A stretch of 50,930 nt of DNA, from positions 1-50,930 of the forward strand of contig CAZXOE010000001.1 in NCBI GenBank assembly GCA_964642305.1, in the 5' to 3' direction. Positions 7,582 to 50,930 of the stretch are shown piece by piece (position 1 is the stretch's first letter; every line of letters begins with the position of its first letter). Under the pieces are notes generated by a model. The model ran no database searches. It saw nothing but the letters and a program-made list of their open reading frames with translations, and was not told where the DNA came from. The DNA is from an uncultured Candidatus Saccharibacteria bacterium. Its GTDB lineage: Bacteria > Patescibacteriota > Minisyncoccia > Phycocordibacterales > UBA1550. Made by a program: the position numbers and the translations under genes.

Positions 7582-7617
7582 ATGCCCACCCGTAATTTAC
7601 GGTGTGGGCATTTTTTA
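7582..7617. terminator. Bidirectional terminator
   Basis: atgcccaccCg-taattta-cggtgtgggcat followed by tttttt. Serves 7272-7562 (+) and the small minus-strand ORF. Confidence 0.65.
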
Positions 7618-7626
7618 GTGCGCGGG

Positions 7627-7728
7627 CTATTCTTTGTCATCCATCTTCTTCTGGAATTCCTTGAAACTTGTGGGATCCAAACATTTGATGGCTTCCAACA
7701 TGGCGCAAAGTATTTTTTTAAACATCAT
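7627..7728 (-). CDS. Candidate 33-aa small protein MMFKKILCAMLEAIKCLDPTSFKEFQKKMDDKE (below the ORF-track cutoff)
   Basis: AAGGAGA (complement of 7733-7739) lies 4 nt before the ATG. Minus-strand promoter TTGCTT(7795-7790)-N17-TGgTATGTT(7772-7767). Stop is followed by the 7582-7617 terminator. Confidence 0.35.
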   Translation of the reverse strand: MMFKKILCAMLEAIKCLDPTSFKEFQKKMDDKE

Positions 7729-7871
7729 GTATTCTCCTTATGCAAATTGTAGAGACTTCTATTTAGAACATACCACAAGTTTCCATAAAAAGCAACCTGT
7801 ATGTTTACAAGACATCTACATAAATGGTAAAGTAGGTAAGAATAATCGCGCAAAGCTGTCTAAAAACTACA

Positions 7872-8114
7872 ATGCAATCAATGACAATACTTATGGGACA
7901 CGGGCTAGTATGGTGGACTGGCATGGTTGGAGGATTTTTCTTTCTTCTTTTAATTATCACCGCGCTAACAAAGCAGTACAACTATAATCTTTTTACAAAG
8001 GCCCAGGTACCGCTTACACCATATCATCACTGGTTTGGCTGGCTCACATTTGGGATCCTCCTTATTCATTTCCTTCTCGCGCTATTTAGTTCAGTCTTTT
8101 TTGTATTTTTCTAA
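7872..8114 (+). CDS. 80-aa two-TM protein with His-x12/13-His helix (ferric-reductase/cytochrome-b-like remnant)
   Basis: TM1 is GLVWWTGMVGGFFFLLLIITAL. TM2 is YHHWFGWLTFGILLIHFLLALF. Stop TAA 8112-8114 is followed 2 nt later by the ATG of the FNR-like gene. Confidence 0.55.
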   Translation: MQSMTILMGHGLVWWTGMVGGFFFLLLIITALTKQYNYNLFTKAQVPLTPYHHWFGWLTFGILLIHFLLALFSSVFFVFF

Positions 8115-8116
8115 AC

Positions 8117-8845
8117 ATGGCAACACTTTCACGAGTCATTAGCAAATGGTTTACAGAGGCGCCACACTGGAACGGTACTATTATTGAGAGCGAACGTATT
8201 GGCTCGCGTATTCAAAAAGTGAGGATAGAGCTTCCAGAATTTATAATAGCGCCATTCCCTCTCGGATCATATGTTACTGCTGTCACATGGGACTGCGTAC
8301 CGCGTTGCTACTCCACAGCAAAAAGTGATGACCGTTCATTCACATTATTAGTAAGCTTTTCTGGTGGCGGATGTGGGGCGCGTTTTTTCCGAGACTCTCC
8401 AGTTGGAACCAAGGTTCTTTTTTACGGACCATTTGATGATTTTCCATATCGCTATGGTACTAGTCGCCCAAAAGTATTTTTTGCAACATCCACTGGTATC
8501 GCTCCATTTAGAATGATGCTTGATGAAGCCATCAAAGAGGGTGTTCATTCTACAATTTATATTGGCTCGCCAAAGGAGTCAGACGTAGCCCTTCGCGAAG
8601 AGTTTGAAACGCTAGAAAAACAGCATCCGAAGCTTGTAAAATTTCAACCTGTTCTCTCAAATAGCGACGAGTCATGGAAAGGAGCTCGTGGATATGTAAC
8701 AGACTATATCCCAAAAAACGCTGAGACAATTAGAAAAAGTGATATCTATATTTGCGGTATTCCACCAATGACTCTCGGCGTGCTTAGAGCGCTTGAGGAT
8801 ATTGATATGCCTAAGGAACAAATATTCGTGCAAAAGTTTGGTTAG
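8117..8845 (+). CDS. FNR-like FAD/NAD(P)H-binding oxidoreductase module
   Basis: RCYS (RxYS FAD motif), GPFDDF, STGIAPF (NAD(P)-binding GxGxxP-type) and C-terminal ICGIPPM. Confidence 0.8.
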   Translation: MATLSRVISKWFTEAPHWNGTIIESERIGSRIQKVRIELPEFIIAPFPLGSYVTAVTWDCVPRCYSTAKSDDRSFTLLVSFSGGGCGARFFRDSPVGTKVLFYGPFDDFPYRYGTSRPKVFFATSTGIAPFRMMLDEAIKEGVHSTIYIGSPKESDVALREEFETLEKQHPKLVKFQPVLSNSDESWKGARGYVTDYIPKNAETIRKSDIYICGIPPMTLGVLRALEDIDMPKEQIFVQKFG

Positions 8846-8861
8846 GGAGTATAATGCAAAT

Positions 8862-9332
8862 ATGGAATCAAACGAAATTGCAGTATATAGAGGACTAGGA
8901 GAAGTGCGGAATTATGGCATTGCTGTTCTTGTTGCGCTATTTATTTTAAACAGTTTAACGCTTTGGGCGCTCAACTGGATTGAAACCAATGACCTGCACG
9001 ATGAACTTCAAAAGTACAGCGAATCACTACCAGCGCCGGGAACAGCAAAGCCAGACCAAACTGTGAACCTTCCGGAAGATATTTTACTTTTTCGCACAGA
9101 GACAAACGCTAAAATTGGCTTTTATCAAACATCGATCGGAGGCGAAAAGTACCTAGCATACGCTGATCAAGACAAACACTCTGTGCTTATGAAGTCAATG
9201 TCAAACATACAGGGTGAGGTACGAAGTTTCGCGCTCGCTCTTGTTGCGCTTTATCTTGGTGAACTTGTAATTCTTCTGGGTTGGTGGTTTTTTATCCGCT
9301 CAAAAGTGCGTGAAATATTTGAAGCAGTATAA
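8862..9332 (+). CDS. Two-TM membrane protein with ~100-aa loop, unknown function
   Basis: GGGAG at 8845-8849 upstream of ATG 8862. TMs are YGIAVLVALFILNSLTLWAL and FALALVALYLGELVILLGWWFFI. Sits in the operon between the FNR and FMN_bind genes. Confidence 0.6.
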   Translation: MESNEIAVYRGLGEVRNYGIAVLVALFILNSLTLWALNWIETNDLHDELQKYSESLPAPGTAKPDQTVNLPEDILLFRTETNAKIGFYQTSIGGEKYLAYADQDKHSVLMKSMSNIQGEVRSFALALVALYLGELVILLGWWFFIRSKVREIFEAV

Positions 9333-9335
9333 AAT

Positions 9336-9896
9336 ATGTCATCATTCACAAAAAATCTTCAAAAGTTTCTCGTTCTATTTTTCACTGCGTCCTCAGTAGT
9401 ACTTGTCACGATGGGTATAATACGTATCAAGAAAGTTGACACTATTTCACTTACTGAATCTGGGCAACCAAATTTGCCAAATAATACAGACACTCTAGGG
9501 TCTGCAACAATAACAGGAACAGCTGTACAAACTCCATGGGGAGATGCTGTCGCTGCTATTACAGTTAAAGACGGGAAAATTATTGCAGCAACAATGCCAT
9601 CGATCCCAGACTCCCCTCCTTCAGTTTACGCCGTGCCTTACCTTATTGACCAAGCTGTAAAGGCTGGATCTGCGAATATTCAGGGAGTCTCTGGAGCGAC
9701 ATACACAAGCATTGCTTTTAAAACATCACTTGAAAGCGCGATCTCAAAGGCTGAAGTTCAGGGGGAGACGATTGTTGCAAACGCATCAACTGGCGGTGGC
9801 GTATCTACCGCAAAACCATCAGTTCCACGAAAATACCGTGAGAGCGAAGACGAGGAAGAACATGATGAAGATGAAGATGAAGAATGGGACGATTAA
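9336..9896 (+). CDS. Membrane-anchored FMN-binding domain protein (one FMN_bind domain) with acidic tail
   Basis: N-terminal TM (FLVLFFTASSVVLVTMGII), TPWGD...motif, flavinylation-type motif GVSGATYTS, and C-terminus ESEDEEEHDEDEDEEWDD. Confidence 0.8.
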   Translation: MSSFTKNLQKFLVLFFTASSVVLVTMGIIRIKKVDTISLTESGQPNLPNNTDTLGSATITGTAVQTPWGDAVAAITVKDGKIIAATMPSIPDSPPSVYAVPYLIDQAVKAGSANIQGVSGATYTSIAFKTSLESAISKAEVQGETIVANASTGGGVSTAKPSVPRKYRESEDEEEHDEDEDEEWDD

Positions 9897-9937
9897 TTCT
9901 CTGTAAGATTTTCAAAATAAGACCGTCTCCAGTAGTA

Positions 9938-10951
9938 ATGACAACATTCAAAAAGAAATTAGAGACATTTTTTGTCTATTTTTTTACTGGAATTTCAATA
10001 CTAGTTGTTGTTTTGGGTATTCAAAAAGCGAAGGATGTTGACGCATTTGCTACCAAACCTGCCCCACCAGAGGACAACGGAGACAGTGGCACGAAAAACC
10101 AGCAGTCAAGTGTCTTTGGCGCATTAGCATCAAATTCAAAAGTTCTTGGAGCCTCTGAGTCTGTCTCTGTTGTTGGAAAAAGTTATCCGACCCCATGGGG
10201 AGATCTTGCTACTTCTGTAAATATTAAAAATGGAGAAATTATCTCTGTGGAAATTCCTACTCTTCCAAACTCTCCTCAGTCTATCTACGCAAGACCAATT
10301 TTAATAAACGAAACACTGAGGGCTGGTTCTGCAAATGTTCAGGCGGTGACAGGCGCAACGATCACAAGCAATGCATTTAAAGCATCACTTGAGAGCGCCA
10401 TTGCGCGCGCTAAAGTAAAAAATCCAATAGCTGTTTTGAAAGGCAATGGAATGGCATTACAGACCAATGAAAGCGCTCCGTCAACACCTCAAATTATTAC
10501 CGAAACTCCAATTATTAAGACCCCTAGAGCCTCCGTTACGCTATCATCTGGGGTGTCTGGAACTTTTGCTGGTAACGCATATTCCACAAAATGGGGAAAC
10601 ACAGTTGCATCAGTGACATTTACTAATGGAATAATAACTGCTGTTTCTATGCCACAGGTCCCAAACTCTCCTCCGTCGATTCAGGCAGAGTCATTTCTAA
10701 TAGAGCAGGCGCTCGCCACTGGCTCAGCAAATATTCAGGGGGTTTCAGGGGCAACTGTTGTAAGTGACGCATTCAAGCTATCATTGGAAAGCGCTATTGC
10801 AAAAGCGAGAGCTCAGGGTACAATATCAACACCTGTGCCTACGACAGCTATTTCCACAACACAAATGCAAACTATTACCACGCATCGCTATAAGCAAAGA
10901 ATGGATAGAGATAATGATGACCATGATGACGATGATCATGATGATGATTAA
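9938..10951 (+). CDS. Membrane-anchored protein with two FMN-binding domains and Asp/His-rich tail
   Basis: ATG 9938 (MTTFKKKLETFFVYFF...). Two repeats carry AVTGATITS and GVSGATVVS. C-terminus is DRDNDDHDDDDHDDD. Confidence 0.8.
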   Translation: MTTFKKKLETFFVYFFTGISILVVVLGIQKAKDVDAFATKPAPPEDNGDSGTKNQQSSVFGALASNSKVLGASESVSVVGKSYPTPWGDLATSVNIKNGEIISVEIPTLPNSPQSIYARPILINETLRAGSANVQAVTGATITSNAFKASLESAIARAKVKNPIAVLKGNGMALQTNESAPSTPQIITETPIIKTPRASVTLSSGVSGTFAGNAYSTKWGNTVASVTFTNGIITAVSMPQVPNSPPSIQAESFLIEQALATGSANIQGVSGATVVSDAFKLSLESAIAKARAQGTISTPVPTTAISTTQMQTITTHRYKQRMDRDNDDHDDDDHDDD

Positions 10952-10954
10952 TAT

Positions 10955-11863
10955 ATGACAGAACATTTTGTTTTTCACTCAATGGGGATTCCCGTCCATA
11001 TTACAATCGTAGGCCTTTCAAAAACTGAGGCATACGAGGCAGTAAAAAAAGCTGAGATCGTATTCAATGAGTACGATTTTCGTTTTAGCCGTTTCAAAAC
11101 AGAGAGTGAGTTAATGGCTCTAAATATGAGCAACGGCGCCTGGCACAAGGTTGGTGTGGAACTTTTTCAAATTATTAAACGCTGTGTCGCTCTCTCAGTA
11201 GAAACTGATGGAGCATTCGATCCGTCGGTCGGTGGCATTCTTGCGTCATACGGGTACGGTCTCCCTGAGAACTTCGTCTCACCATCAAATACTCCCACCT
11301 ACCGAGACCTCGCATTCAACGACCGCGAGCTTTTGATCCGCCTTTCGCCAGGGCAGATTCTTGAACCTGCGTGCATTGTGAAAGGCATAGCGATTGATGC
11401 TGTAGGAAGAGCATTGGATAGTGTGCCTGGATTTATGATTAACGCAGGTGGAGACATCCTAACAAAGGGTAATTTTGAAGGCGACTCGTTGTGGAACATT
11501 GCAGTGCAGTCCCCAAACGACCCCAATGCCATTGTGGCAGCCGTAGGACTTAGAAATGCCAGTATGGCCACCTCTGGCGTCTACCAAACGAAGGGCGAGC
11601 AAAACGGCAAAAAATGGCATCACCTGGTAAACATGAAAAACAAACTACCAGCAAAAGGAATTATTAGCGCGACGGTAATAGCAGAAACCTGCGAGAAGGC
11701 GGACACAGAGGCCTCACTCGCAATACTTCTTGGACCAATACAGGCTACTGCTCGTCTGGAGCGAAGCGGACTTCCCTATTTTCTTATTGATGACGACGGC
11801 AATGTGCACAAAAATTCCGCATTCACATCACTAGAAGTACCAATGGTATCTCTTCTCTCATAA
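10955..11863 (+). CDS. apbE: FAD:protein FMN transferase (ApbE family)
   Basis: ApbE-type blocks (GAFDPSVGG, KGIAIDA, INAGGDI, ATSGVYQ). No N-terminal signal peptide or lipobox is visible. Confidence 0.85.
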   Translation: MTEHFVFHSMGIPVHITIVGLSKTEAYEAVKKAEIVFNEYDFRFSRFKTESELMALNMSNGAWHKVGVELFQIIKRCVALSVETDGAFDPSVGGILASYGYGLPENFVSPSNTPTYRDLAFNDRELLIRLSPGQILEPACIVKGIAIDAVGRALDSVPGFMINAGGDILTKGNFEGDSLWNIAVQSPNDPNAIVAAVGLRNASMATSGVYQTKGEQNGKKWHHLVNMKNKLPAKGIISATVIAETCEKADTEASLAILLGPIQATARLERSGLPYFLIDDDGNVHKNSAFTSLEVPMVSLLS

Positions 11864-12905: not shown

Positions 12906-13532
12906 TTACAACATATCTGCCGTTATTCCATAAAGTCCTTCTTGTTTAGAAAGCCATTTTTTGTCACCACTTCCATACGCAACGCCAATAACAAATTTAA
13001 TTGCAGGGTATCTTGAGAAGGTTTTCTTTAGTGATAAAAAAGTCCATGCAATTCGGAACTGTAATCGTTGTTTTTTATTGCCCCAGCCGAGGAGAACCAT
13101 ATCTGGATTGTACATCTCAATATATTTTTTAATATCATGCGGATATTCCGCGATAATTCCAAGCTTAATGTCCCCACGAGACCCCCAAGGAAGATTTTTT
13201 GCCTCTTCATGAAATGCAAAAATAGTTGTCCTGCCAACCACATTATGCTTTTGAAGCACCTCCACAACCTGAATATAAAAATCACCACTAGCCTCCTTGA
13301 TCTCAATCAGCAGTTCCAACTTCGTTGACGACAGATATTTCAATACATCGTCTAATGTAGTGGCGTTGTTGTCAGTAACCTTATCGTGCGCGCAGACAAC
13401 AGTTTCGTCATCAGCGTCATATCGAACATCAAACTCCACGCCATCTACACCGGCCTCAACCGATTTTCTAAAAGCTGAAAACGAGTTTTCAATTTCTCCT
13501 GCTGACCATCCTCTGTGTGTAAATAATTTCAT
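12906..13532 (-). CDS. Glycerophosphodiester phosphodiesterase family protein
   Basis: THRGWSAGEIENSFSAFRKSVEAGVDGVEFDVR is the GDPD signature (HRG...EN...E.D). Confidence 0.75.
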   Translation of the reverse strand: MKLFTHRGWSAGEIENSFSAFRKSVEAGVDGVEFDVRYDADDETVVCAHDKVTDNNATTLDDVLKYLSSTKLELLIEIKEASGDFYIQVVEVLQKHNVVGRTTIFAFHEEAKNLPWGSRGDIKLGIIAEYPHDIKKYIEMYNPDMVLLGWGNKKQRLQFRIAWTFLSLKKTFSRYPAIKFVIGVAYGSGDKKWLSKQEGLYGITADML

Positions 13533-13590
13533 ATCCTCTCGTTGCTAAAAAAACGTTCTTATTGATTCACAGAAGTGTCTGTACATATCA

Positions 13591-14514
13591 CTATCTGAAA
13601 ATCATAATGCCTGAATCGTATTTTAGGTCAAAGATAAGCTCGCCTTTTGAAGTGAAGTGATAGCTCGCGACTTCGCCTAGAGATTTAGAAAAGTCGGCTT
13701 CTTGTGATCCTTCGCAGTACATCATTGTGGACATCATTCTCTCAAATGAAATTTTGTTTCCAGTTGTGGTGTACTCTCCGCCTACGCCGTTGCAATCTGT
13801 GCTTGCAGAAAATGTTTTGCTGTCCTTGAAGGTGAGTGCAAATCTTTTTGAATCGCGAGGAATTATTTTTTTACCGTCATTGTATGTCGTGCTTACCCAG
13901 TTCCATGTCTTCATATTGAGCTTCATTCGCGCGGGGTCTGCTTCGCCTTCGAAATTTTGCGCAACTTCACCAAACTGCATTGTCTTTGGATCAAAGAGAA
14001 GCCAAATACTTTTCCCTATTGATGGCATTGCTGTAAATGGTTCTCCGGGTTTTCTTTCTGCATAATTCACAAGCACAATGTTCCCTTTTTTTATCTCTGT
14101 TGTTTGCGGAGCAATGCGGTCACCGATAATTATAGCGTCTGAGCCAAGATAACCGTCCGCCTTGTTGAGCGCAACAGCAAGATAATAAAAGGTACCACTT
14201 CCACCAGTCTCCTGCGTGAGCAAGAACGCAGTGTCCTCCCGCCCATCACCATCGAAATCGTGTTTTACAGCGTTGCCAAAATAGCGAGTGATTGTTTTAG
14301 ATGCCGAACCTAAAATCAAGGGTTCCTCAGACATGCCATTTTTTAATGTTACTGATTCTCCGTTTATTCTGTATGTCGCATCCATAGGACTAGACGCCCC
14401 TATATTCAAACCAATAGACGAATCATTAACCCCAACCTTAAACTTAAAAACCCCCCAACCAAAAAATGTAACGAGTATGAGTATCGCAAAAATTATTCCT
14501 AATGTTTTTTTCAC
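13591..14514 (-). CDS. Membrane-anchored protein with C-terminal META (HslJ-like) domain
   Basis: N-terminal TM (LGIIFAILILVTFFGWGVF). The C-terminal ...FSASTDCNGVGGEYTTTGNKISFERMMSTMMYC resembles META/DUF306. Confidence 0.6.
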   Translation of the reverse strand: MKKTLGIIFAILILVTFFGWGVFKFKVGVNDSSIGLNIGASSPMDATYRINGESVTLKNGMSEEPLILGSASKTITRYFGNAVKHDFDGDGREDTAFLLTQETGGSGTFYYLAVALNKADGYLGSDAIIIGDRIAPQTTEIKKGNIVLVNYAERKPGEPFTAMPSIGKSIWLLFDPKTMQFGEVAQNFEGEADPARMKLNMKTWNWVSTTYNDGKKIIPRDSKRFALTFKDSKTFSASTDCNGVGGEYTTTGNKISFERMMSTMMYCEGSQEADFSKSLGEVASYHFTSKGELIFDLKYDSGIMIFR

Positions 14515-25461: not shown

Positions 25462-26322
25462 TTATAATTGTTTGCCTAAAATTACCTCTACATTCCGTAT
25501 TTCAGTAATATTAAATGGTAATCGAAAAAAAATCCTTTTGATTGGCTCTTCTGGTTTTTCCTCTATCAATAAAACAGTGCCCAAAATAAGGTTATTCTTT
25601 GCTGTTAGTACAGTGTCGTAAGCGGACACAGCGCTATTCTGTGGAACCCTTGCTTCAAAATTACCCATACCACGACCAATCGCAACCGCTGGGATATTAT
25701 ATGAACCAACAATAACTCTGTGTTCTTCCCCTGGTGATGAGTATAGTTTTATTTTTGCTGTATAAGAAGTAGTTTCGACAATCTCCCCAATAACCCCAGA
25801 GCCAGAATACACAACCGTATTGCCAACAAAAACTCCTTCCTTCTCTCCTGCATCTATGACGATAGTGTCATACGGCGAACGGTCTGCACCAACTAAAACA
25901 TTGGCAAAGAGTCTATCATCATCACGTGAACGCCCAAGAGACTCCTCTAACTTAATTATTTTTTCTGCTAGCAAATTTCTATCTAAAACTTTTGCTTCCA
26001 TTACAGAAATATCATCATTAAGTTTTTCATTTTCTTTTACAAGAGTGTTCTTATCCTTAAAACTTGCAAAAAATGTTCCGACCACGCTTTCTGTCTTGTT
26101 GCCTGCTTCCCACATAAACAAAGAAAATGGATAAACTGCATTTGTGATTACTGAACGAAGTGGAGCATAAAAAAGAACAAGAACGCTTATGGCAAACAGA
26201 AAGCCTATGGCCAAGCCACGTGTCCAGACACGGCTCTGGTGACCCGCCAGCTGATTCGTAAGCGCAATGTTCTTTTTTCCTATAGTTTGTTTATCTTGGC
26301 GGAGTGTCATTTTCGTGCTCAA
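25462..26322 (-). CDS. mreC: Rod shape-determining protein MreC
   Basis: N-terminal TM, coiled coil (LVKENEKLNDDISVMEAKV), beta-barrel C-domain (GVIGEIVE...). Lies downstream of mreB. Confidence 0.8.
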   Translation of the reverse strand: MSTKMTLRQDKQTIGKKNIALTNQLAGHQSRVWTRGLAIGFLFAISVLVLFYAPLRSVITNAVYPFSLFMWEAGNKTESVVGTFFASFKDKNTLVKENEKLNDDISVMEAKVLDRNLLAEKIIKLEESLGRSRDDDRLFANVLVGADRSPYDTIVIDAGEKEGVFVGNTVVYSGSGVIGEIVETTSYTAKIKLYSSPGEEHRVIVGSYNIPAVAIGRGMGNFEARVPQNSAVSAYDTVLTAKNNLILGTVLLIEEKPEEPIKRIFFRLPFNITEIRNVEVILGKQL

Positions 26323-27340
26323 TTAAGACATCTCGAAAACCCTCCATATCTTCTAAAATCATTCCTGCTCCACGAGCCACAGCGGTCAGTGGGTCATTTG
26401 CAATATAAACAGGAACATGAAGAGTCTGTGAAAGAAGTTCATCTAAACCACGAATAAGGGCCCCTCCTCCAACCAAAATAATTCCACGACTCATCACGTC
26501 TGAAAGAACTTCAGGCGGGGTAGTTTCAATTACCTCTTTTACTGCATCAACAAGACCTGCTATTGACCCGCTCATCGCCTCTCGGATATCTGTGTCAGTT
26601 ACTATCACCTCGCGCGGAAGCCCTGTTACTAAGTCTCGTCCACGAATTACCGCCTCCATTTGCTCCTTGCACTTCTTTACTGAACCAATAGCAATCTTTA
26701 CACTTTCTGCAGTTCTCTCTCCGATTAGCACTCGAAATTCATCCCGCACGTAATTTATGATGTCGTTGTTTAGACGATCGCCAGCGATATGCAGGTTTTT
26801 TGAACACACGATACCTCCAAGCGAAATGACAGCAATGTCTGTTGTTCCACCACCGATATCAACAATCATATTGCCAACAGGTTCCTTTACTGGGAGCTTG
26901 ATACCTATTGCTGATGCCATAGGCTCCTCAACAATATGCACCTCGCGAGCACCAGCATTTTTTGCCGCGTCGTACACAGCGCGCACCTCTACAGTCGTAA
27001 TACCAGATGGCACGCCGATAACCACGCGAGGACGAACTGTTTTCTTGCTAACCTTGTTCGCTTTGCTAATAAGATAAGAAAGCATTTCCTCCGTTACCTC
27101 AAAATTTGAAATTACCCCATCTACAAGTGGACGAATCGCAACCACATGCCCAGGTGTGCGACCGAGCATTTGCTTCGCCTGCTGACCAAGAGCGACAATT
27201 TGCCCAGTCTTCTGGTTCACAGCAACAACTGAAGGCTCGTTGATAACGATGCCGTGATCGCGCAAATAAACAAGCGTGTTGGCAGTGCCGAGATCAATAC
27301 CGATGTCATTAGAAAAAAGTTGGTAAAATTTATCAAACAT
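26291..27340 (-). CDS. mreB: Rod shape-determining actin homologue MreB
   Basis: IGIDLGTANTLVY, DIGGGTTDIAVISLGG, GGGALIRGLD. Confidence 0.95.
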   Translation of the reverse strand: MFDKFYQLFSNDIGIDLGTANTLVYLRDHGIVINEPSVVAVNQKTGQIVALGQQAKQMLGRTPGHVVAIRPLVDGVISNFEVTEEMLSYLISKANKVSKKTVRPRVVIGVPSGITTVEVRAVYDAAKNAGAREVHIVEEPMASAIGIKLPVKEPVGNMIVDIGGGTTDIAVISLGGIVCSKNLHIAGDRLNNDIINYVRDEFRVLIGERTAESVKIAIGSVKKCKEQMEAVIRGRDLVTGLPREVIVTDTDIREAMSGSIAGLVDAVKEVIETTPPEVLSDVMSRGIILVGGGALIRGLDELLSQTLHVPVYIANDPLTAVARGAGMILEDMEGFRDVLIEHENDTPPR

Positions 27341-28776: not shown

Positions 28777-29418
28777 ATGAACCTGAATCAAAAACCAGCT
28801 GTTGCAGGTAACAACAATGTTGGCTTAGCGATTATGAAAGAATGCGCCAAAACAGGCCGTGCCATTATTAAACCCCCGAAGCGATCCTCACAACCGCAAA
28901 AGCCCGCGATAAAGACGGAAGTTGCCAAGCTTCGCTTGGAAAAATTTACGTTGAAACTCGAGGGCTTCTTCACGAAGTTCCTCGTTGCAACCGACATTGC
29001 AGGCAAGGTGCAGATTAACACGCCGTCTGGCGGAAACATGGGTTCCAAGAAACCAGCAGTTCCGGCGACAGCTCGCTACGAAATGGCAACTGTTGACCTA
29101 GCCAGTCTCATGGCGCGCGTTTCAGTAGACAGCATCTCCATCAACGTAAGCAGGCAGGACGATTCGGAGTTTCACACGATTTTTATCAACTGCACCGTTG
29201 GCAATGGGCCGGGCAGTGGCTTCAATAAGTGGGGTGAATCTGATGGTGGCGTGTACGAGAAACTGATCCGTCGGATTTGCGAAGACCGCATTTGGGGCGT
29301 TGCGACCCTTCGCGAAGTGACGAAGGGCGACAAAACCTTCCTGAACCTGAGCAAAGGAAAAACGACACTAACTGCAAAATCGATCATTCGTTTCGCGATC
29401 GACCAAGGCGGAAAGTAA
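28777..29418 (+). CDS. Hypothetical protein (213 aa), compositionally foreign
   Basis: SD gggagag upstream of the ATG and a terminator after the stop. GC-richer with a different codon style (CTG, GCG, CCG) from its neighbours. No family recognised. Confidence 0.6.
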   Translation: MNLNQKPAVAGNNNVGLAIMKECAKTGRAIIKPPKRSSQPQKPAIKTEVAKLRLEKFTLKLEGFFTKFLVATDIAGKVQINTPSGGNMGSKKPAVPATARYEMATVDLASLMARVSVDSISINVSRQDDSEFHTIFINCTVGNGPGSGFNKWGESDGGVYEKLIRRICEDRIWGVATLREVTKGDKTFLNLSKGKTTLTAKSIIRFAIDQGGK

Positions 29419-32524: not shown

Positions 32525-33538
32525 TTATTTTTTGGCGAGTATGCTTTTCTTGTACGTATCCAAATGCTCAAGCGCAATACCAGTTCCCTTTACCACACAG
32601 TAGAAAGCCTCTTCGGCAAGCACAGCTTTCACACCAGTACGACGCTCCACAAGCTCAGGAAAATTACGAAGCTGAGATGAACCACCTGTCATAATAATCC
32701 CTTGGTCAATAATATCTGCCGAAAGCTCTGGCGGAGTCTCCTGAAGAACGTCTTTAATGGCTCGTATGATTTCGCGAAGTTCCTTATCAATCGCCTTCAC
32801 TATTTCATTAGTCGTCACCTGCGCTGTGCGTGGAAGCCCAGTAACATAATCACGTCCCTTTATAGTCAGCAAAAGCTCGTCATCCATTGGCACCGCTGAA
32901 CCAATACGAACTTTTATCTCCTCTGCTGTCCTATCACCAATAGCAAGATTGAATGTTTTTTTAATATGGTCAGCGATTGCGTGGTCTATTTTGTTACCCG
33001 CGCATTTTACAGAAGAGGATGCAACGATGCCTCCAAGCGAGATCACCGCTACATCTGTCGTGCCTCCACCAATATCCACAACCATGTGTCCACGCGCTTC
33101 ATAAATTGGAATCCCAGCGCCAATAGCAGCAAGAATCGGCTCCTTTACGACATATACATTTTTTGCCCCAGCTTTAATAGTCGCCTCTATCACTGCGCGA
33201 CGCTCAGTAGACGACACACCAGCCGGCACAGAAACCATTACATCTGGTTTCAAAATATTCCACTTACCAAGAGCCTTACTCATATAGTATCGAATCATAG
33301 CCTCGGTCACACGATAGTCCGCAATAACACCATCCTTCATTGGACGATAAGCGACAATATTGTCAGGTGTGCGACCGATCATTTGTTTTGCCTCAACACC
33401 GACAGCCATAATACGGTTGTCCTGCTGGTTTACCGCAACAACCGACGGCTCGTTTAAAACAACTCCTTTCCCAGGAATAAAAACCAGTGTGTTAGCAGTA
33501 CCTAAATCAATTCCAATTTTTGTTACAAATAGTCCCAT
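32525..33538 (-). CDS. mreB: Second MreB-family actin homologue
   Basis: IGIDLGTANTLVF, DIGGGTTDVAVISLGG, GGSSQLRNF. A paralogue of 26291-27340. Confidence 0.92.
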   Translation of the reverse strand: MGLFVTKIGIDLGTANTLVFIPGKGVVLNEPSVVAVNQQDNRIMAVGVEAKQMIGRTPDNIVAYRPMKDGVIADYRVTEAMIRYYMSKALGKWNILKPDVMVSVPAGVSSTERRAVIEATIKAGAKNVYVVKEPILAAIGAGIPIYEARGHMVVDIGGGTTDVAVISLGGIVASSSVKCAGNKIDHAIADHIKKTFNLAIGDRTAEEIKVRIGSAVPMDDELLLTIKGRDYVTGLPRTAQVTTNEIVKAIDKELREIIRAIKDVLQETPPELSADIIDQGIIMTGGSSQLRNFPELVERRTGVKAVLAEEAFYCVVKGTGIALEHLDTYKKSILAKK

Positions 33539-34940: not shown

Positions 34941-36917
34941 ATGCAAATTATCACTGTTGCTCCTATCGCGCGTGGCGCTCTTCAAGGCGAGCTAACCTAT
35001 TTTTCCAAAGAACCGATTAGTGTGGGGATGGTTGTTGTGGCGCCTATACGCAAGCGAGAGGTGCCAGCTATAGTGCTTGAGTGTCGCGAAGTTTCTGAAG
35101 AAAGATCGTCTATCAGGTCGTCAGATTATGCTATTAGGAAAATATCTCGTTCTAAGCCACAAAGAATCTGGTTACCTACATTTCTGAAAGCAGTAGAGAG
35201 AACAGCAGACTTATCAGCACAAAAACTCGGTGAAGTACTGCTAGCGCTCACTCCAAAAACAATATTAGATGCGCACCTTGAGGGTCTTCTAAAAGATCCC
35301 GTCATTAATGATGAAGTGGGTAAATCTGAAATTCTCGCGATTCAAGGCAACACAGAAACTCGTTATAAGGAGTACCAGCGACTTGTCCGTGAATCATTTG
35401 CGCGTCACGAATCTGTTTTTATTTGCGCGCCAACAGAGGAAGATGTACTGCGTTTAACAAAGGAAATTGGACGCGGGATAGAAGACTATACATACGCGCT
35501 TTATAGTAGTATTCCAAAAAAGAAAGTTCTTCTAATGTGGAAAAATATTTTAAATGAAGAACATGCGATTCTAATTGTAGGCACCACGCAATACCTCTCG
35601 CTCCCTAGACATTTCAAAGCAATAGTACTTGACGAAGAACACTCACATGCATGGAAGACTATTTCACGACCGCTGTTAGACCTACGTGTATTTGTGGAGG
35701 AATACGCAAAGGCAACTGGAAGTAGGCTAATCATAGGCGCGCCGATACTTCGCGCGGAAACACACGAGCGTATCAAAAACGGAAAGATTGGAGAATATGG
35801 TCGCATAGCCATGCACGCGCGAGAAAACACAAAAACGCTTCTAGTTGACCCAAGAAATGAGGAAAAATCTGTGAGAGAAAATACCGGCAAGCGAGATATG
35901 GTACTCGTAACAAGAGAACTAAAGGAACTTTTGGAAAATTCGCTGGAACAAGGAGAAAATGTGTTCCTTCTCTCTGCGAGAAAGGGTCTTGCTCCTGTAA
36001 CGACATGTGGCGACTGTGGCGCGCTAGTGCGATGTCCAGAGTGTGATGTGCCTTTAGTAATTCATCGCATTAGAGGCGGTGCGCCGCTGCATAAATTCGC
36101 GGCCTCTAACGCGACAGGTCAAAAAGAGTCGCCTGCAGGAGAAACGCAAATATTTGTATGTCACGGATGTGGCTTTATGCGCGTACCAGAAAACAATGTG
36201 AATGAAACCTGTCCTGCTTGTGGAGGCTGGCGACTCCAGGGTGTTGGCATCGGCATTGATCGCATTGACGATGAAATTAAAAAACTTTTCCCAAAAACAC
36301 ACCGATTCATTTTAGACAGCGATCGCGCGAAAACTCGCTCTCAAGCGAAAAAGATTATTGATCAATTTGAAAAATCAAAAGGTGGTGTGCTTATAGCAAC
36401 ACCAATGGCGCTCCCGCTTTTATGTTCTGTGGCTAATACTGCAATCATTTCCATAGATTCGCTTTTTTCTATCCCAGACATTCGTATGTCAGAGCGAATT
36501 TTTGCACTCGTGCTCGCGCTCCGCGAGAAAACCAGAAGTAAGCTTCTCATTCAAACACGCGCGGATGATACTGCTATTTTTGAACAAGCTCTGTCGGGAG
36601 ACCTAGCTAGCTTTACAGAAAATGAACTTGCGATTAGAAAAGCATTTTCATACCCTCCATATGGCACCATTATTAAGATTACCTTGCGTGGCAAACGAGC
36701 GGAGGTCGCGGGGGAGATTGAAAGACTGAAAACTTTTTTGGGAAGTTATGCTCCAATAGTTCCGGGAACCATGGCAAGAGAGCCAAAAAATATTTTTCGT
36801 ATGCATATGATTTTGAAACTCGCAGATGGCAACTGGCTAAACAATGAACTTCTCGCGAAGCTTCGAGCGCTTCCAATGCAGTTTACTGTTGAGGTAAATC
36901 CTGACAATCTGCTTTAA
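34941..36917 (+). CDS. priA: Primosomal protein N' (replication restart helicase PriA)
   Basis: DExH box VLDEEHSHAWK and zinc-binding cysteines (CGDCG...CPECD, CHGCG...CPACG). Confidence 0.88.
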   Translation: MQIITVAPIARGALQGELTYFSKEPISVGMVVVAPIRKREVPAIVLECREVSEERSSIRSSDYAIRKISRSKPQRIWLPTFLKAVERTADLSAQKLGEVLLALTPKTILDAHLEGLLKDPVINDEVGKSEILAIQGNTETRYKEYQRLVRESFARHESVFICAPTEEDVLRLTKEIGRGIEDYTYALYSSIPKKKVLLMWKNILNEEHAILIVGTTQYLSLPRHFKAIVLDEEHSHAWKTISRPLLDLRVFVEEYAKATGSRLIIGAPILRAETHERIKNGKIGEYGRIAMHARENTKTLLVDPRNEEKSVRENTGKRDMVLVTRELKELLENSLEQGENVFLLSARKGLAPVTTCGDCGALVRCPECDVPLVIHRIRGGAPLHKFAASNATGQKESPAGETQIFVCHGCGFMRVPENNVNETCPACGGWRLQGVGIGIDRIDDEIKKLFPKTHRFILDSDRAKTRSQAKKIIDQFEKSKGGVLIATPMALPLLCSVANTAIISIDSLFSIPDIRMSERIFALVLALREKTRSKLLIQTRADDTAIFEQALSGDLASFTENELAIRKAFSYPPYGTIIKITLRGKRAEVAGEIERLKTFLGSYAPIVPGTMAREPKNIFRMHMILKLADGNWLNNELLAKLRALPMQFTVEVNPDNLL

Positions 36918-49374: not shown

Positions 49375-50930
49375 TTAATTCGTCCACGCTGACATCAAAA
49401 GCGCAAAGTCGTATTTATCCACCTTGCCATCCTTGTTAATGTCTGCAATTGAGCCAATTCCTTTACCCCACTCAGCCATAAGGAGAGCAAAGTCATATTT
49501 ATTTACAATATGATCGCTGTTAAGATCGCCTACAATGGCACTGAGTAGTGCCTGCGCGAATGAACTCCATCCGCCACCTCCACCGCCACCTCCAGTTGGC
49601 ACAACTGCTGGTGTTGATACAGCCGTTACGTTCAAATTTGATGAAGACGATAGTCCGTATTGGTCAGAAAGCAAGAGCGATATAGTGTACACGCCTGGTG
49701 TGCTATATGTGTGTGTCTGATTATTCCCTATCAACGCAGAGCTTACAGGCACTGTTACGCCATCTCCAAAGCTCCAGAAATAATTCCACGAATCAGGGAG
49801 CGACGAACTATTAGGATCGCTTGAAGTATCTGTGATCGTTGCAAACAGATCATTTATTGAAGCGATAAATGATGCCACAGGAGCATAATTTACCAATGAC
49901 GTAAGAAGAGTTGGTATTGAGATAGAGAGAGTGGTTGTGCCGTTTGGCAATAGGATTGACCCACTTGTCATTACACCATTCGCAATAACCGCATCTGTAA
50001 GTGTCGTATTGTTAATTATTGAATCAACGATAGATGTCGTTGATCCCGTTGACTGTACATTATTTAGGACTGATGTAGATATATTCCCTCCATTAATAGT
50101 AGATGTTGCTATTGTTGATCCACCAATAGCCGTATCAGTAAGAACTGAATTAGTAATAGTAGAATTGGTAATAGTAGATGTTGCCACAGTAGAACTTGCC
50201 ATACTACTTTCTATTATTAGGCTATCGTTAATCTCTGAGTATACGGATGTAGAGCTTGCAACAGTGGTGTCAGTAATAATAGAGGTATCAATGATTGACG
50301 CGGTCGAAGTTGAAGTTGTGATAGCTGAGTCTGTAACAGTGCTATCGGCAATCGTAGAGGTTGCAACAGTTGTATCGACAAGAGTTGAGGTCTCAATGAT
50401 TGACGCTGTCGAGGTGGAAGTTGTGACAGTTGAGTCTGTAACAGTGCTGTCGGCAATTGTAGACGTTGCAACAGTGGTATCGGTGATCACAGACGTATCA
50501 ATAACAGATGCTGTTGAGGTTGAGGTAGCGACTGACGAATCGGTAACAGTGCTGTCGGCGATTGTAGACGTTGCAACAGTGGTATCGACAAGAGTTGAGG
50601 TCTCAATAACAGATGCTGTTGAGGTTGAGGTGGTGATTGTTGAATCTGTAATTGTGCTGTCTGCAACAGTAGAAGTTGCGACAGTGGTGTCGGTGATCAC
50701 AGACGTATCAATAACAGACGCGGTCGAAGTTGAAGTTGTGATAGCTGAGTCTGTAACAGTGCTATCGGCAATTGTAGACGTTGCGACTGTTGTGTCAGTA
50801 ATATCAGATGTGTCAATAATTGACGCTGTCGAAGTTGAGGTTGTGATAGCTGAGTCTGTAACAGTGCTGTCGGCAATTGTAGACGTTGCAACAGTGGTAT
50901 CGACAAGAGTTGAGGTCTCAATAACAGATG
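49375..50930 (-). CDS. Large surface protein: Thr/Ser-rich 35-aa tandem repeats, PKD-like domain, Gly8 linker, C-terminal dockerin (N-terminus outside window)
   Basis: The frame stays open beyond the track's GVG-type start at 50700 up to the window edge. Dockerin duplicated motif: GDLNSDHIVNKYDFALLM...DINKDGKVDKYDFALLM. PKD-like segment: WSFGDGVTV...HTYSTPGVYTISL. Confidence 0.75.
   Translation of the reverse strand, partial: SVIETSTLVDTTVATSTIADSTVTDSAITTSTSTASIIDTSDITDTTVATSTIADSTVTDSAITTSTSTASVIDTSVITDTTVATSTVADSTITDSTITTSTSTASVIETSTLVDTTVATSTIADSTVTDSSVATSTSTASVIDTSVITDTTVATSTIADSTVTDSTVTTSTSTASIIETSTLVDTTVATSTIADSTVTDSAITTSTSTASIIDTSIITDTTVASSTSVYSEINDSLIIESSMASSTVATSTITNSTITNSVLTDTAIGGSTIATSTINGGNISTSVLNNVQSTGSTTSIVDSIINNTTLTDAVIANGVMTSGSILLPNGTTTLSISIPTLLTSLVNYAPVASFIASINDLFATITDTSSDPNSSSLPDSWNYFWSFGDGVTVPVSSALIGNNQTHTYSTPGVYTISLLLSDQYGLSSSSNLNVTAVSTPAVVPTGGGGGGGGWSSFAQALLSAIVGDLNSDHIVNKYDFALLMAEWGKGIGSIADINKDGKVDKYDFALLMSAWTN
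50215..50930 (-). repeat. 105-bp (35-codon) in-frame tandem repeat array, at least 6.5 units, continuing past the window edge
   Basis: The block gagtctgtaacagtgctRtcggcaatYgtagaSgttgcaacagt recurs near 50328, 50432, 50537, 50643, 50748 and 50852. Confidence 0.85.

Follow-up and report, generated by a model that had tools for sequence, protein, structure and literature searches.

A candidate minimal trans-membrane electron conduit encoded by a conserved six-gene operon of Patescibacteria

The DNA analysed here (the window) is a stretch of 50,930 nucleotides, contig CAZXOE010000001.1 of assembly GCA_964642305.1, from an uncultured member of the Patescibacteria. Its + strand carries at 7872-11863 six closely packed, co-directional genes, g1 to g6, which on balance probably encode a self-contained minimal trans-membrane electron conduit leading from reduced nicotinamide adenine dinucleotide (phosphate), NAD(P)H, to surface flavins, with the haem, the flavin, and the electron flow all predicted from the encoded sequences. 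The proposal centres on g1, an 80-residue protein of two trans-membrane (TM) segments and one invariant histidine pair, encoded beside a flavin adenine dinucleotide (FAD) reductase, two anchored proteins with flavin mononucleotide (FMN) binding domains, and the ApbE-type transferase that would attach the FMN. The genes are as follows.

7872-8114, + strand: g1, 80-residue 2-TM protein, putative minimal bis-His di-haem b subunit (open reading frame, family alignment)
8117-8845, + strand: g2, 242-residue soluble NqrF-like FNR-family FAD/NAD(P)H oxidoreductase (PF00175, PDB relatives)
8862-9332, + strand: g3, 156-residue 2-TM accessory protein with an acidic outer loop of ~80 residues (family conservation)
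9336-9896, + strand: g4, 186-residue anchored protein with one FMN_bind domain (PF04205)
9938-10951, + strand: g5, 337-residue anchored protein with two FMN_bind domains (PF04205)
10955-11863, + strand: g6, 302-residue ApbE-family FAD:protein FMN transferase (PF02424)

A sequence-only reading of this stretch had described six co-directional genes separated by 2-17 nt in a region beginning at 7804. All six + strand open reading frames (ORFs) were found, as was every motif that it had quoted (YHHWFGWLTFGILLIH, PRCYS, ATSTGIAPF, VSGATYTS, VTGATITS, and VSGATVVS). The gaps from g1 through g6 are in order 2, 16, 3, 41, and 3 nt, four of them within the range given and one, of 41 nt, outside it, while position 7804 coincides with a promoter-like site, the first gene opening only at 7872. 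The start of g3 was taken as the ATG common to its relatives (the mechanical ORF opens at 8793), and that of g5 as the MTTFKKK conserved with the related locus L012 (the mechanical ORF opens at 9884). A simple hydropathy scan assigns two TM segments each to g1 and g3, a single N-terminal one each to g4 and g5, and none to g2 and g6, with cysteine absent from g1, g3, g4, and g5 and numbering 3-4 in g2 and g6.

Relatives of g1 are few: among 1.8 billion cluster representatives scanned exhaustively with HMMER only five were credible at the 50%-identity level, and a 90%-identity collection contains 60 g1 clusters of 68-133 residues, all unnamed and without Pfam domains. In the family alignment (n=56) residues W15, G17, G21, K34, Q35, N37, H52, W57, and H66 are invariant, and H53, W54, G56, G61, L69, and A70 nearly so. 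TM1 (residues 10-35) contains an invariant GxxxG (G17-x3-G21), the loop an invariant K-Q-x-N (K34-Q35-x-N37), and TM2 (residues 53-80) the pattern H-x3-G-x9-H, which places H52 and H66 in H-x13-H spacing, with H53 adding an H-x12-H. The histidine pair picked out by the sequence-only reading is therefore conserved among homologues of the peptide, both H52 and H66 being present in 56/56 sequences. The loop carries 2-3 Lys/Arg, and the termini carry none and often an Asp; because of this distribution the positive-inside rule predicts a cytoplasmic loop, with TM2 running from inside to outside, His52 at the inner and His66 at the outer side. The predicted orientation equals that of TM3 of NOX2, where His101 is the inner and His115 the outer haem ligand (PMC3591440).

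The resemblance of g1 to ferric-reductase and cytochrome-b helices, as far as profile searches can tell, is weak but reproducible. Against Ferric_reduct (PF01794) g1 scores 16.9 bits (E 0.007), under the cut-off of 28, with residues 48-74 aligned to profile positions 33-59. When members of the family were scanned singly, PF01794 was matched by 56/56 (best E 9.6e-5), prokaryotic cytochrome b561 (PF01292) by 24/56, and DUF4405 (PF14358) by 16/56, whereas none of ten reversed or shuffled g1 controls matched any of the three at E <= 1; composition therefore does not account for these matches. All three are bis-His b-haem membrane families, and PF01794, cytochrome b561, and DUF4405 belong to one Pfam 'two-haem cytochrome' clan. 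Alignment by eye sets g1 HHWFGWLTFGILLIH (HHWFGWLTFGILLIH66) against TM3 of E. coli MsrQ (RRLLGLWCFAWATLH91), residues 47-161 of which cover the whole PF01794 profile, and also against a YedZ-type protein RRALGILTMGFATTH (RRALGILTMGFATTH137) from a related locus. In ferric reductase domains (FRDs) of the YedZ/STEAP kind an Arg stands in for the first haem His, and 'long-form' FRDs retain both (PMC3591440); g1 likewise retains both, in contrast to the Arg of the MsrQ/YedZ-type proteins.

The PF01794 superfamily is defined by a six-TM domain whose haem-ligating histidines lie on TM3 (H-x13-H) and TM5 (H-x12-H) (PMC3591440). With 2 TM in g1 and 4 in a tandem variant, this architecture is not found here; g1 has one His-pair helix, and four ligands could come only from a dimer. 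We regard g1 as a helix hairpin of the bis-His cytochrome-b-like kind, either related to the FRD/cytochrome b561/DUF4405 group or convergent with it, and not as a proven FRD member. The earlier assertion that g1 has the spacing of haem helices is borne out by the invariant H-x13-H and the PF01794 matches in 56/56 members, and is limited by the fact that all of these fall below cut-off and that no profile-profile or structural link is significant. As a separate observation, the related locus L117, which has the same operon, encodes a canonical YedZ-type PF01794 protein of 288 residues 5.6 kb downstream (13332-14198), with Arg for the first TM3 His and H-x12-H on TM5, as well as a heliorhodopsin upstream (1810-2601). 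This PF01794 protein makes the occurrence of haem proteins in the lineage plausible.

The strongest indirect argument that a single hairpin would dimerise into a four-helix, four-His, two-haem core comes from the tandem form. P0103 is a protein of 151 residues and 4 TM that contains two g1-like hairpins in one chain, each with H-x13-H and each with the residues that are invariant in the g1 family. It scores 20.5 bits against PF01794 (E 5e-4, profile positions 1-107 of 121, below the cut-off of 28) and also aligns over most of its length to PF01292, PF14358, and PF03188, and its AlphaFold2 (AF2) model shows four long helices (predicted local distance difference test score, pLDDT, 80; predicted template-modelling score, pTM, 0.50). 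The form is rare, being limited to three 90%-identity clusters. An FNR gene follows with an 8-nt overlap, and its product matches NAD_binding_1, FAD_binding_6 (30 bits), and, just above the cut-off, the ferric-reductase NAD-binding model PF08030 (22.3 bits, cut-off 22.2). This pair (L007:6001-7135, L008:1695-2829) has glycosyltransferase and Wzt/ABC-2 genes for neighbours, and FMN_bind and ApbE genes are absent from its vicinity. The tandem form suggests that g1 is a half-unit that dimerises, and since no fused or 6-TM form of the family occurs in the databases searched, the description of g1 as a 'remnant' finds no support. A fused g1-FNR protein is likewise absent from the collections searched; the lone longer candidate, P0058, proved to have a wrongly called start, with g1 read out of frame.

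The second gene encodes an FNR-family reductase, with NAD_binding_1 (PF00175) matched at 70.7 bits (cut-off 22) and FAD_binding_6 (PF00970) at 16 bits, under its cut-off of 21.1. The family motifs are PRxYS, GGGxGARFF, YGPFDDF, ATSTGxAPF, YICGxPxM, and a C-terminal QKFG, of which PRxYS, GGGxGARFF, ATSTGxAPF, and YICGxP are invariant or nearly so. Among PDB sequences the NqrF FAD/NADH domain is the best relative (E 1.5e-27); the reductases of methane monooxygenase and benzoate dioxygenase, cytochrome b5 reductase, and Fre (NCBIfam E 8e-16; PDB 1qfj E 5e-16) come next, and no NOX dehydrogenase domain is among the best 60. The reductase foreseen by the sequence-only reading is hence confirmed as to family, through NAD_binding_1 and the motifs, and not as to kinship with NOX dehydrogenases, the nearest relatives being NqrF and oxygenase reductases. 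Homologues of g2 (~94 clusters) are all stand-alone proteins of ~240 residues. The g1 and g2 genes are translationally coupled, with g2 starting 2 nt after the g1 stop and the g1-FNR spacing across loci ranging from 2 nt to a 14-nt overlap. More distant FNR relatives (~30% identity; Acidobacteriota and others) in 185,579 species genomes have other neighbours and no g1-like gene, and were set aside as ordinary soluble reductases in unrelated contexts.

At the flavin end, g4 scores 30.5 bits and g5, over two stretches, 51.9 bits against FMN_bind (PF04205, cut-off 22), and g6 scores 158.6 bits against ApbE (PF02424, cut-off 25.6) over profile positions 1-258 of 266, which upholds both assignments of the earlier reading. 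The flavinylation motif is QGVSGAT(Y)T in g4, and QAVTGAT and QGVSGAT in g5. Relatives of g5 have, according to locus, 2-4 FMN_bind domains, and an operon can thus contain as many as five flavin sites. Both proteins have strongly conserved N-terminal anchors, linkers rich in Pro, Thr, and Ser, and no Cys. The tail of g4 is polyacidic and ends in EWDD (9830-9896), and that of g5 is rich in His and Asp (10900-10951). Yonathbacteria-type FMN_bind tails (the equivalents in L012 and L095-L114) are polyacidic, in some cases with His, and end mostly in EWDD, DWDD, or WDF, preceded by a conserved PSVPRKYR, and acidic tails are missing in the more distant loci L001, L003, L005, and L107. These polyacidic and His-rich tails may serve in cation binding or as a sorting or attachment signal. 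An outside location of g4 and g5 is favoured because of the conserved anchors, the linkers, the lack of Cys, and the polyacidic tails, and multi-flavinylated beads-on-a-string proteins have been described as extracytosolic (PMC11334425).

Typical ApbE proteins are themselves extracytosolic, with a lipoprotein or secretion signal, and cytosolic ApbEs that modify cytosolic targets are a minority (PMC12052999); g6, which contains 3 Cys, resembles this minority class. The flavinylation motif is recognised even in unstructured tags (PMC12052999), and the simplest reconciliation would be that the seven-residue motif of g4 and g5 receives its FMN while still in the cytoplasm, ahead of export or in the course of it. 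The proposal that FMN is bound outside the cell is accordingly supported by the anchored FMN_bind proteins and weakened by an ApbE that lacks a signal peptide, which leaves this step an inferred one. We also observed that g5 and the ApbE gene share one reading frame, with TAA and one codon between them at 10949-10957. Read-through of this stop as a means of exporting ApbE was considered and rejected, as the frame is common to the window and L012 (stop plus three codons) and not to L013 or L001, which points to coincidence.

Between the cytochrome-like and flavin genes lies g3, which has no match in Pfam or NCBIfam and whose family is present in most operon loci at 24-83% identity. A single-sequence AF2 model of low confidence (pLDDT 67) shows two long helices around a disordered stretch and three beta-strands. 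Kinship with the sensor part of a histidine kinase encoded beside a variant cluster was considered and discarded, no similarity being found. The probable role of g3 is that of a scaffold linking the cytochrome to the anchored flavoproteins.

The gene order is not confined to this contig. With hidden Markov models built from our own alignments and run on every locus retrieved through g1 or the FNR gene, the order g1-FNR-g3-FMN_bind(-multi-FMN_bind)-ApbE was found in ~16 independent Yonathbacteria/Paceibacteria loci, whose proteins are 45-85% identical to those of the window, and because of this recurrence the arrangement is far beyond chance. The loci and their variants are listed here.

Full order: window, L003, L012, L013, L093-L096, L099-L101, L105, L107, L109, L110, L114; also L117
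L001: order g3-FMN_bind-ApbE-g1-FNR
L005: without g3
L007/L008: tandem g1 and FNR only
L010:3163-6258 and L011:439-3534: response regulator, histidine kinase, FMN_bind, 244-residue ApbE, g1; FNR not adjacent
L116:6636-7564: g1, gap of ~130 nt, truncated 187-residue FNR; no FMN_bind or ApbE

These variants indicate that modules recombine around g1, the sole membrane component common to all. The cluster of L010 and L011 suggests regulated expression and a different electron donor, and L116 may be a decaying copy of the system.

In the proposed mechanism, NAD(P)H would reduce the FAD on g2, and two copies of g1 would form a four-helix bundle holding two b haems, the inner between His52 and His52' and the outer between His66 and His66'. 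The positively charged, predicted cytoplasmic loop of g1 (KQYN...F..Q..T) may dock g2 in the manner of the B-loop of NOX enzymes. Electrons would then pass from FAD to the inner haem, the outer haem, and the covalent FMN of g4, and onwards through the successive FMNs of g5 to an acceptor outside the cell that is not encoded in the operon, for which Fe(III), O2, and a partner-cell or mineral surface are candidates. The cytosolic ApbE would most likely flavinylate the g4 and g5 motifs before or during export. The role of the whole would be re-oxidation of NAD(P)H, or iron reduction, in a fermentative cell without a respiratory chain.

Several results weigh against such a conduit. The PF01794 score of g1 is sub-threshold, and the PF01794, PF01292, and PF14358 scores stay under the gathering cut-offs in every member of its family. 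The g1 family and tandem alignments were compared by hhalign with three proteins, each as a single sequence, namely MsrQ and the cytochrome b561 YodB, both of E. coli, and a YedZ-type protein of the Candidate Phyla Radiation (CPR); nothing significant emerged, though the last of these still put G56-H66 of g1 on the expected TM3 segment. The g1 profile found no match among all PDB sequences (hmmsearch, E <= 10), and a Foldseek search of the PDB with the AF2 model of P0103 returned generic helical or four-helix bundles only, at E > 4. On the flavin side, Gln replaces the Asp of the canonical motif D-x-x-[ST]-G-A-[ST], although exchange of that Asp for Ala had a minor effect in a tested substrate (PMC12052999); the FMN_bind domains of 24 proteins all carry [IV]-Q-[GAS]-V-[ST]-G-A-T, with the canonical Asp at the first position, as D-x-x-T-G-A-T, only in the L010 cluster. 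The charges flanking the FMN_bind anchors are balanced (N flank +2.3, C flank +2.7), in each of the 8 loci examined the ApbE opens at its catalytic core and lacks signal peptide, lipobox, and TM segment, and the absence of a flavin exporter among the operon genes speaks against an outside location of g4 and g5. No terminal acceptor or iron transporter lies consistently near the operon in the loci inspected, and Patescibacteria/CPR bacteria are described as ancestrally without electron-transport chains (PMC7507113).

Some of these results would fit a complex that faces inward, with the FMN_bind domains in the cytosol (N-out, C-in) as a membrane-tethered NAD(P)H flavin chain and g1 serving as an anchor or as the sole trans-membrane step to an outside acceptor. 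The signal-less, Cys-containing ApbE and the balanced anchor charges are what such a complex would show, and cytosolic ApbEs with cytosolic targets do exist (PMC12052999). We nevertheless consider it unlikely, as the long Pro/Thr/Ser linkers, the lack of Cys, and the multi-domain forms of g4 and g5 are those of extracytosolic proteins (PMC11334425), and as a cytosolic FMN chain beside a cytosolic FNR would make a membrane cytochrome needless. The net charge is, moreover, slightly greater on the N flank of the anchors, and the anchored FMN_bind proteins characterised to date (NqrC, RnfG, and PplA) face outward. It is a little harder still to believe that g1 is no cytochrome at all, and instead a small adaptor in the membrane, or a peptide that binds metal or protons, tethering a Fre-like g2, with electrons leaving as reduced free flavin. 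Every cytochrome-family match of g1 is indeed sub-threshold, the FAD_binding_6 score of g2 lies under its cut-off, g2 also resembles the NAD(P)H-flavin reductase Fre, with the E values given above, and the availability of haem in CPR bacteria is uncertain. An anchor, however, needs no invariant H-x13-H with a Gly four residues after the first His, repeated in both halves of the tandem form; the matches fall specifically on three families of bis-His cytochromes and are lost in the controls, and g1 also occurs with FMN_bind and ApbE where no FNR is adjacent.

Two further readings keep the haem and change the purpose. That the same conduit acts as an assimilatory ferric reductase for iron acquisition, and not as a sink for reducing equivalents, is credible though on the improbable side. 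A link to iron uptake is known for many flavinylation clusters of the MsrQ-like, PepSY-like, and NQR/RNF-like kinds (PMC8238504), the Ala at the NOX-specific His119 position fits metal-reductase FRDs over O2-reducing ones (PMC3591440), and the polyacidic and His-rich tails of g4 and g5 could bind cations; these acidic tails are, however, missing in the more distant members, and no VIT1, Feo, or other iron transporter is present in or next to the operon at any locus inspected. Very unlikely, in our estimate, is a NOX-like oxidase, in which the outer haem or the FMN chain would turn O2 into superoxide or H2O2, either to detoxify O2 or to attack a host, even though bacterial NOX enzymes exist (PMC5676040, PMC11564096) and tandem g1 with FNR and no flavin module has the minimal composition of one, an FNR module and a di-haem membrane domain. 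Characteristic of NOX enzymes are a dehydrogenase domain of their own type and the signature residue His119, which lies four positions past the outer His of TM3 (PMC3591440), whereas the equivalent residue in g1, Ala70, is nearly invariant (Ala in 54/56 sequences) and the FNR is not NOX-dehydrogenase-like, as its best 60 PDB relatives attest. An oxidase would also leave the conserved FMN_bind and ApbE genes without purpose.

An outward conduit from NAD(P)H to surface flavins is the reading that we prefer, and a bolder version of it may be offered tentatively, as a possibility that falls short of probable. In this version g1 would be the smallest natural trans-membrane di-haem cytochrome, the 2-TM half of a ferric-reductase/b561-type four-helix core working as a homodimer, and the tandem form would capture a duplication step towards larger cytochromes; joined to a separately encoded NqrF-like reductase, it would open to Patescibacteria a respiratory-like exit for NAD(P)H, onto 3-5 covalent flavins attached by a cytosolic ApbE before export. 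If the conduit is real, models of redox balance, iron acquisition, or host interaction would change for at least the Yonathbacteria/Paceibacteria branch, and g1, whose chain of ~80 residues has a single His pair, would offer a very small and experimentally tractable model of trans-membrane haem electron transfer, with a bearing on the origin of ferric-reductase and cytochrome-b561-type domains through hairpin duplication. The combination of a signal-less ApbE with anchored FMN_bind proteins raises the question of where flavinylation takes place when an FAD exporter is absent, and flavinylation by a cytosolic ApbE before export would be a route not described for extracytosolic flavoproteins.

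Upstream of the operon, two further features were located.

7804-7833, + strand: promoter-like site, TTTACA, 18-nt spacer, TG-extended TAAAGT (consensus match)
7589-7608, + strand: terminator-like hairpin with T-run, 5' boundary of the operon region, closing the upstream gene

The promoter-like site, found by a consensus scan and a match to consensus only, lies 39 nt upstream of g1. Between the window, L012, L093, and L096 the intergenic region of ~300 nt upstream of g1 shows 85% identity, and this long conserved 5' region has no Rfam match to a known RNA or riboswitch. The sequence of the hairpin is kept in related loci. A 33-residue ORF, MMFKKILCAMLEAIKCLDPTSFKEFQKKMDDKE, lies divergent from the operon on the - strand at 7627-7728, with a strong Shine-Dalgarno sequence (AAGGAGA) and a 36-residue homologue in L012; this ORF shares the hairpin at 7589-7608, which is possibly a bidirectional terminator. 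Downstream, a convergent DUF5654 gene begins 5 nt past g6. The window outside the operon is ordinary Patescibacteria housekeeping DNA, including topA, relA/spoT, a mur ligase, penicillin-binding proteins (PBPs), mraW/mraZ, mreB/C, aminoacyl-tRNA synthetases, and pyruvate kinase, and its nearest named relatives are Candidatus Yonathbacteria and metagenome-assembled genomes of Parcubacteria/Paceibacterota. Two MreB paralogues, MreC, and two class-B PBPs fall within this one 50-kb stretch of a small-genome bacterium (26291-27340 and 32525-33538, - strand). ORFs at 34941-36917 (658 residues) and 28777-29418 (213 residues) have no Pfam match, and a PKD/dockerin-domain protein is encoded at 49375-50700.

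The known systems closest in logic were described by Meheust et al. (2021, eLife) as MsrQ-like flavinylation clusters, and combine an FRD with NAD-binding, FMN_bind, and ApbE components (PMC8238504). Like the operon, they comprise a bis-His membrane protein, a PF00175 donor, FMN_bind, and apbE, and a path from NAD(P)H through haems to extracytosolic FMN has been proposed for them. Their 6-TM PF01794 protein is usually fused to the NAD-binding domain, and they occur mostly in Actinobacteria, whereas in the operon an 80-residue 2-TM g1 is separate from an NqrF-like g2, and the ApbE without a signal peptide and the Patescibacteria host set it further apart. Under the definition used in that study, a PF01794 gene clustered with apbE/FMN_bind, the ApbE and FMN_bind genes are above threshold and g1 is below the PF01794 cut-off, so that the operon is not formally captured while its architecture corresponds. 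Survey definitions that call for a PF01794 match and a signal peptide on the ApbE or FMN_bind protein would probably miss the operon, and flavinylation was found to be strikingly under-represented in CPR/Patescibacteria (PMC8238504); if the operon is what we propose, such threshold-based surveys can overlook whole lineages. We found no paper linking Patescibacteria with ApbE, no Patescibacteria entries in those parts of the PMC8238504 supplements available to us, and nothing relevant in PMC12577380.

A cytochrome separate from its reductase is itself not new. Fre-MsrQ of E. coli, a two-component NOX-like system (Juillan-Binard et al. 2017, as cited in PMC8238504; MsrQ cofactors, PMC12525009), resembles g1 and g2 in having an FNR reductase and an FRD-type cytochrome as separate polypeptides that pass electrons outward. 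The sequence-only reading had called a free 2-TM remnant unusual; the split as such is already known from Fre-MsrQ, and the 2-TM unit is new. MsrQ has 6 TM, an Arg for the first TM3 His, and the molybdoenzyme MsrP as acceptor, in contrast to the 2 TM, both His, coupled genes, and flavinylated acceptors of the operon. In E. coli, fre is not adjacent to msrQ. FezC (Huang et al. 2024, mSystems) is a small membrane protein with bis-His haem-b sites arising by predicted homodimerisation, for which haem b has been shown experimentally, and DUF4405 proteins co-localise with apbE (PMC11334425). The small bis-His g1 is similar to these, with weak DUF4405 matches in 16/56 members and in the tandem form. 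FezC, however, is encoded in ferrosome gene clusters, and the DUF4405 proteins are of the six-TM kind, whereas g1 is shorter, scores below the PF14358 cut-off, and is paired with an FNR gene.

The flavin end invites comparison with extracellular electron transfer in Listeria, which likewise takes place in a fermentative cell of monoderm type and carries NADH electrons to a surface protein with two flavinylated FMN_bind domains (PplA, compared with g5). Listeria FmnB is an exported lipoprotein and g6 has no export signal; no quinone takes part in the operon system, genes for Ndh2, EetA, and EetB were not seen in the operon or in the part of the window ORFs that was scanned, and the NCBIfam model of PplA gives E 0.033 and 13.3 bits against a cut-off of 325, so that there is no PplA equivalog. 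An NqrF-like module, NqrC/RnfG-like FMN_bind, and ApbE are shared with Na+-NQR and with the NQR/RNF-like single-pathway systems of Actinobacteria and CPR (PMC8238504). In those NQR/RNF-like systems an NqrB/RnfD-like domain is fused to the NqrF-like one, whereas in the operon a 2-TM His-pair protein takes the corresponding position and no protein matches PF03116 (NqrB/RnfD-like). By analogy, then, the logic of the operon appears already known from the MsrQ-like flavinylation systems and the split Fre-MsrQ, and its flavin end is like NqrC/RnfG and PplA. New are a putative cytochrome cut down to a 2-TM hairpin that has its own gene and a tandem-fused relative, the obligatory pairing of g1 with an NqrF-like reductase that stands alone, an ApbE without a signal peptide, multi-flavin proteins with acidic tails, and the Patescibacteria host.

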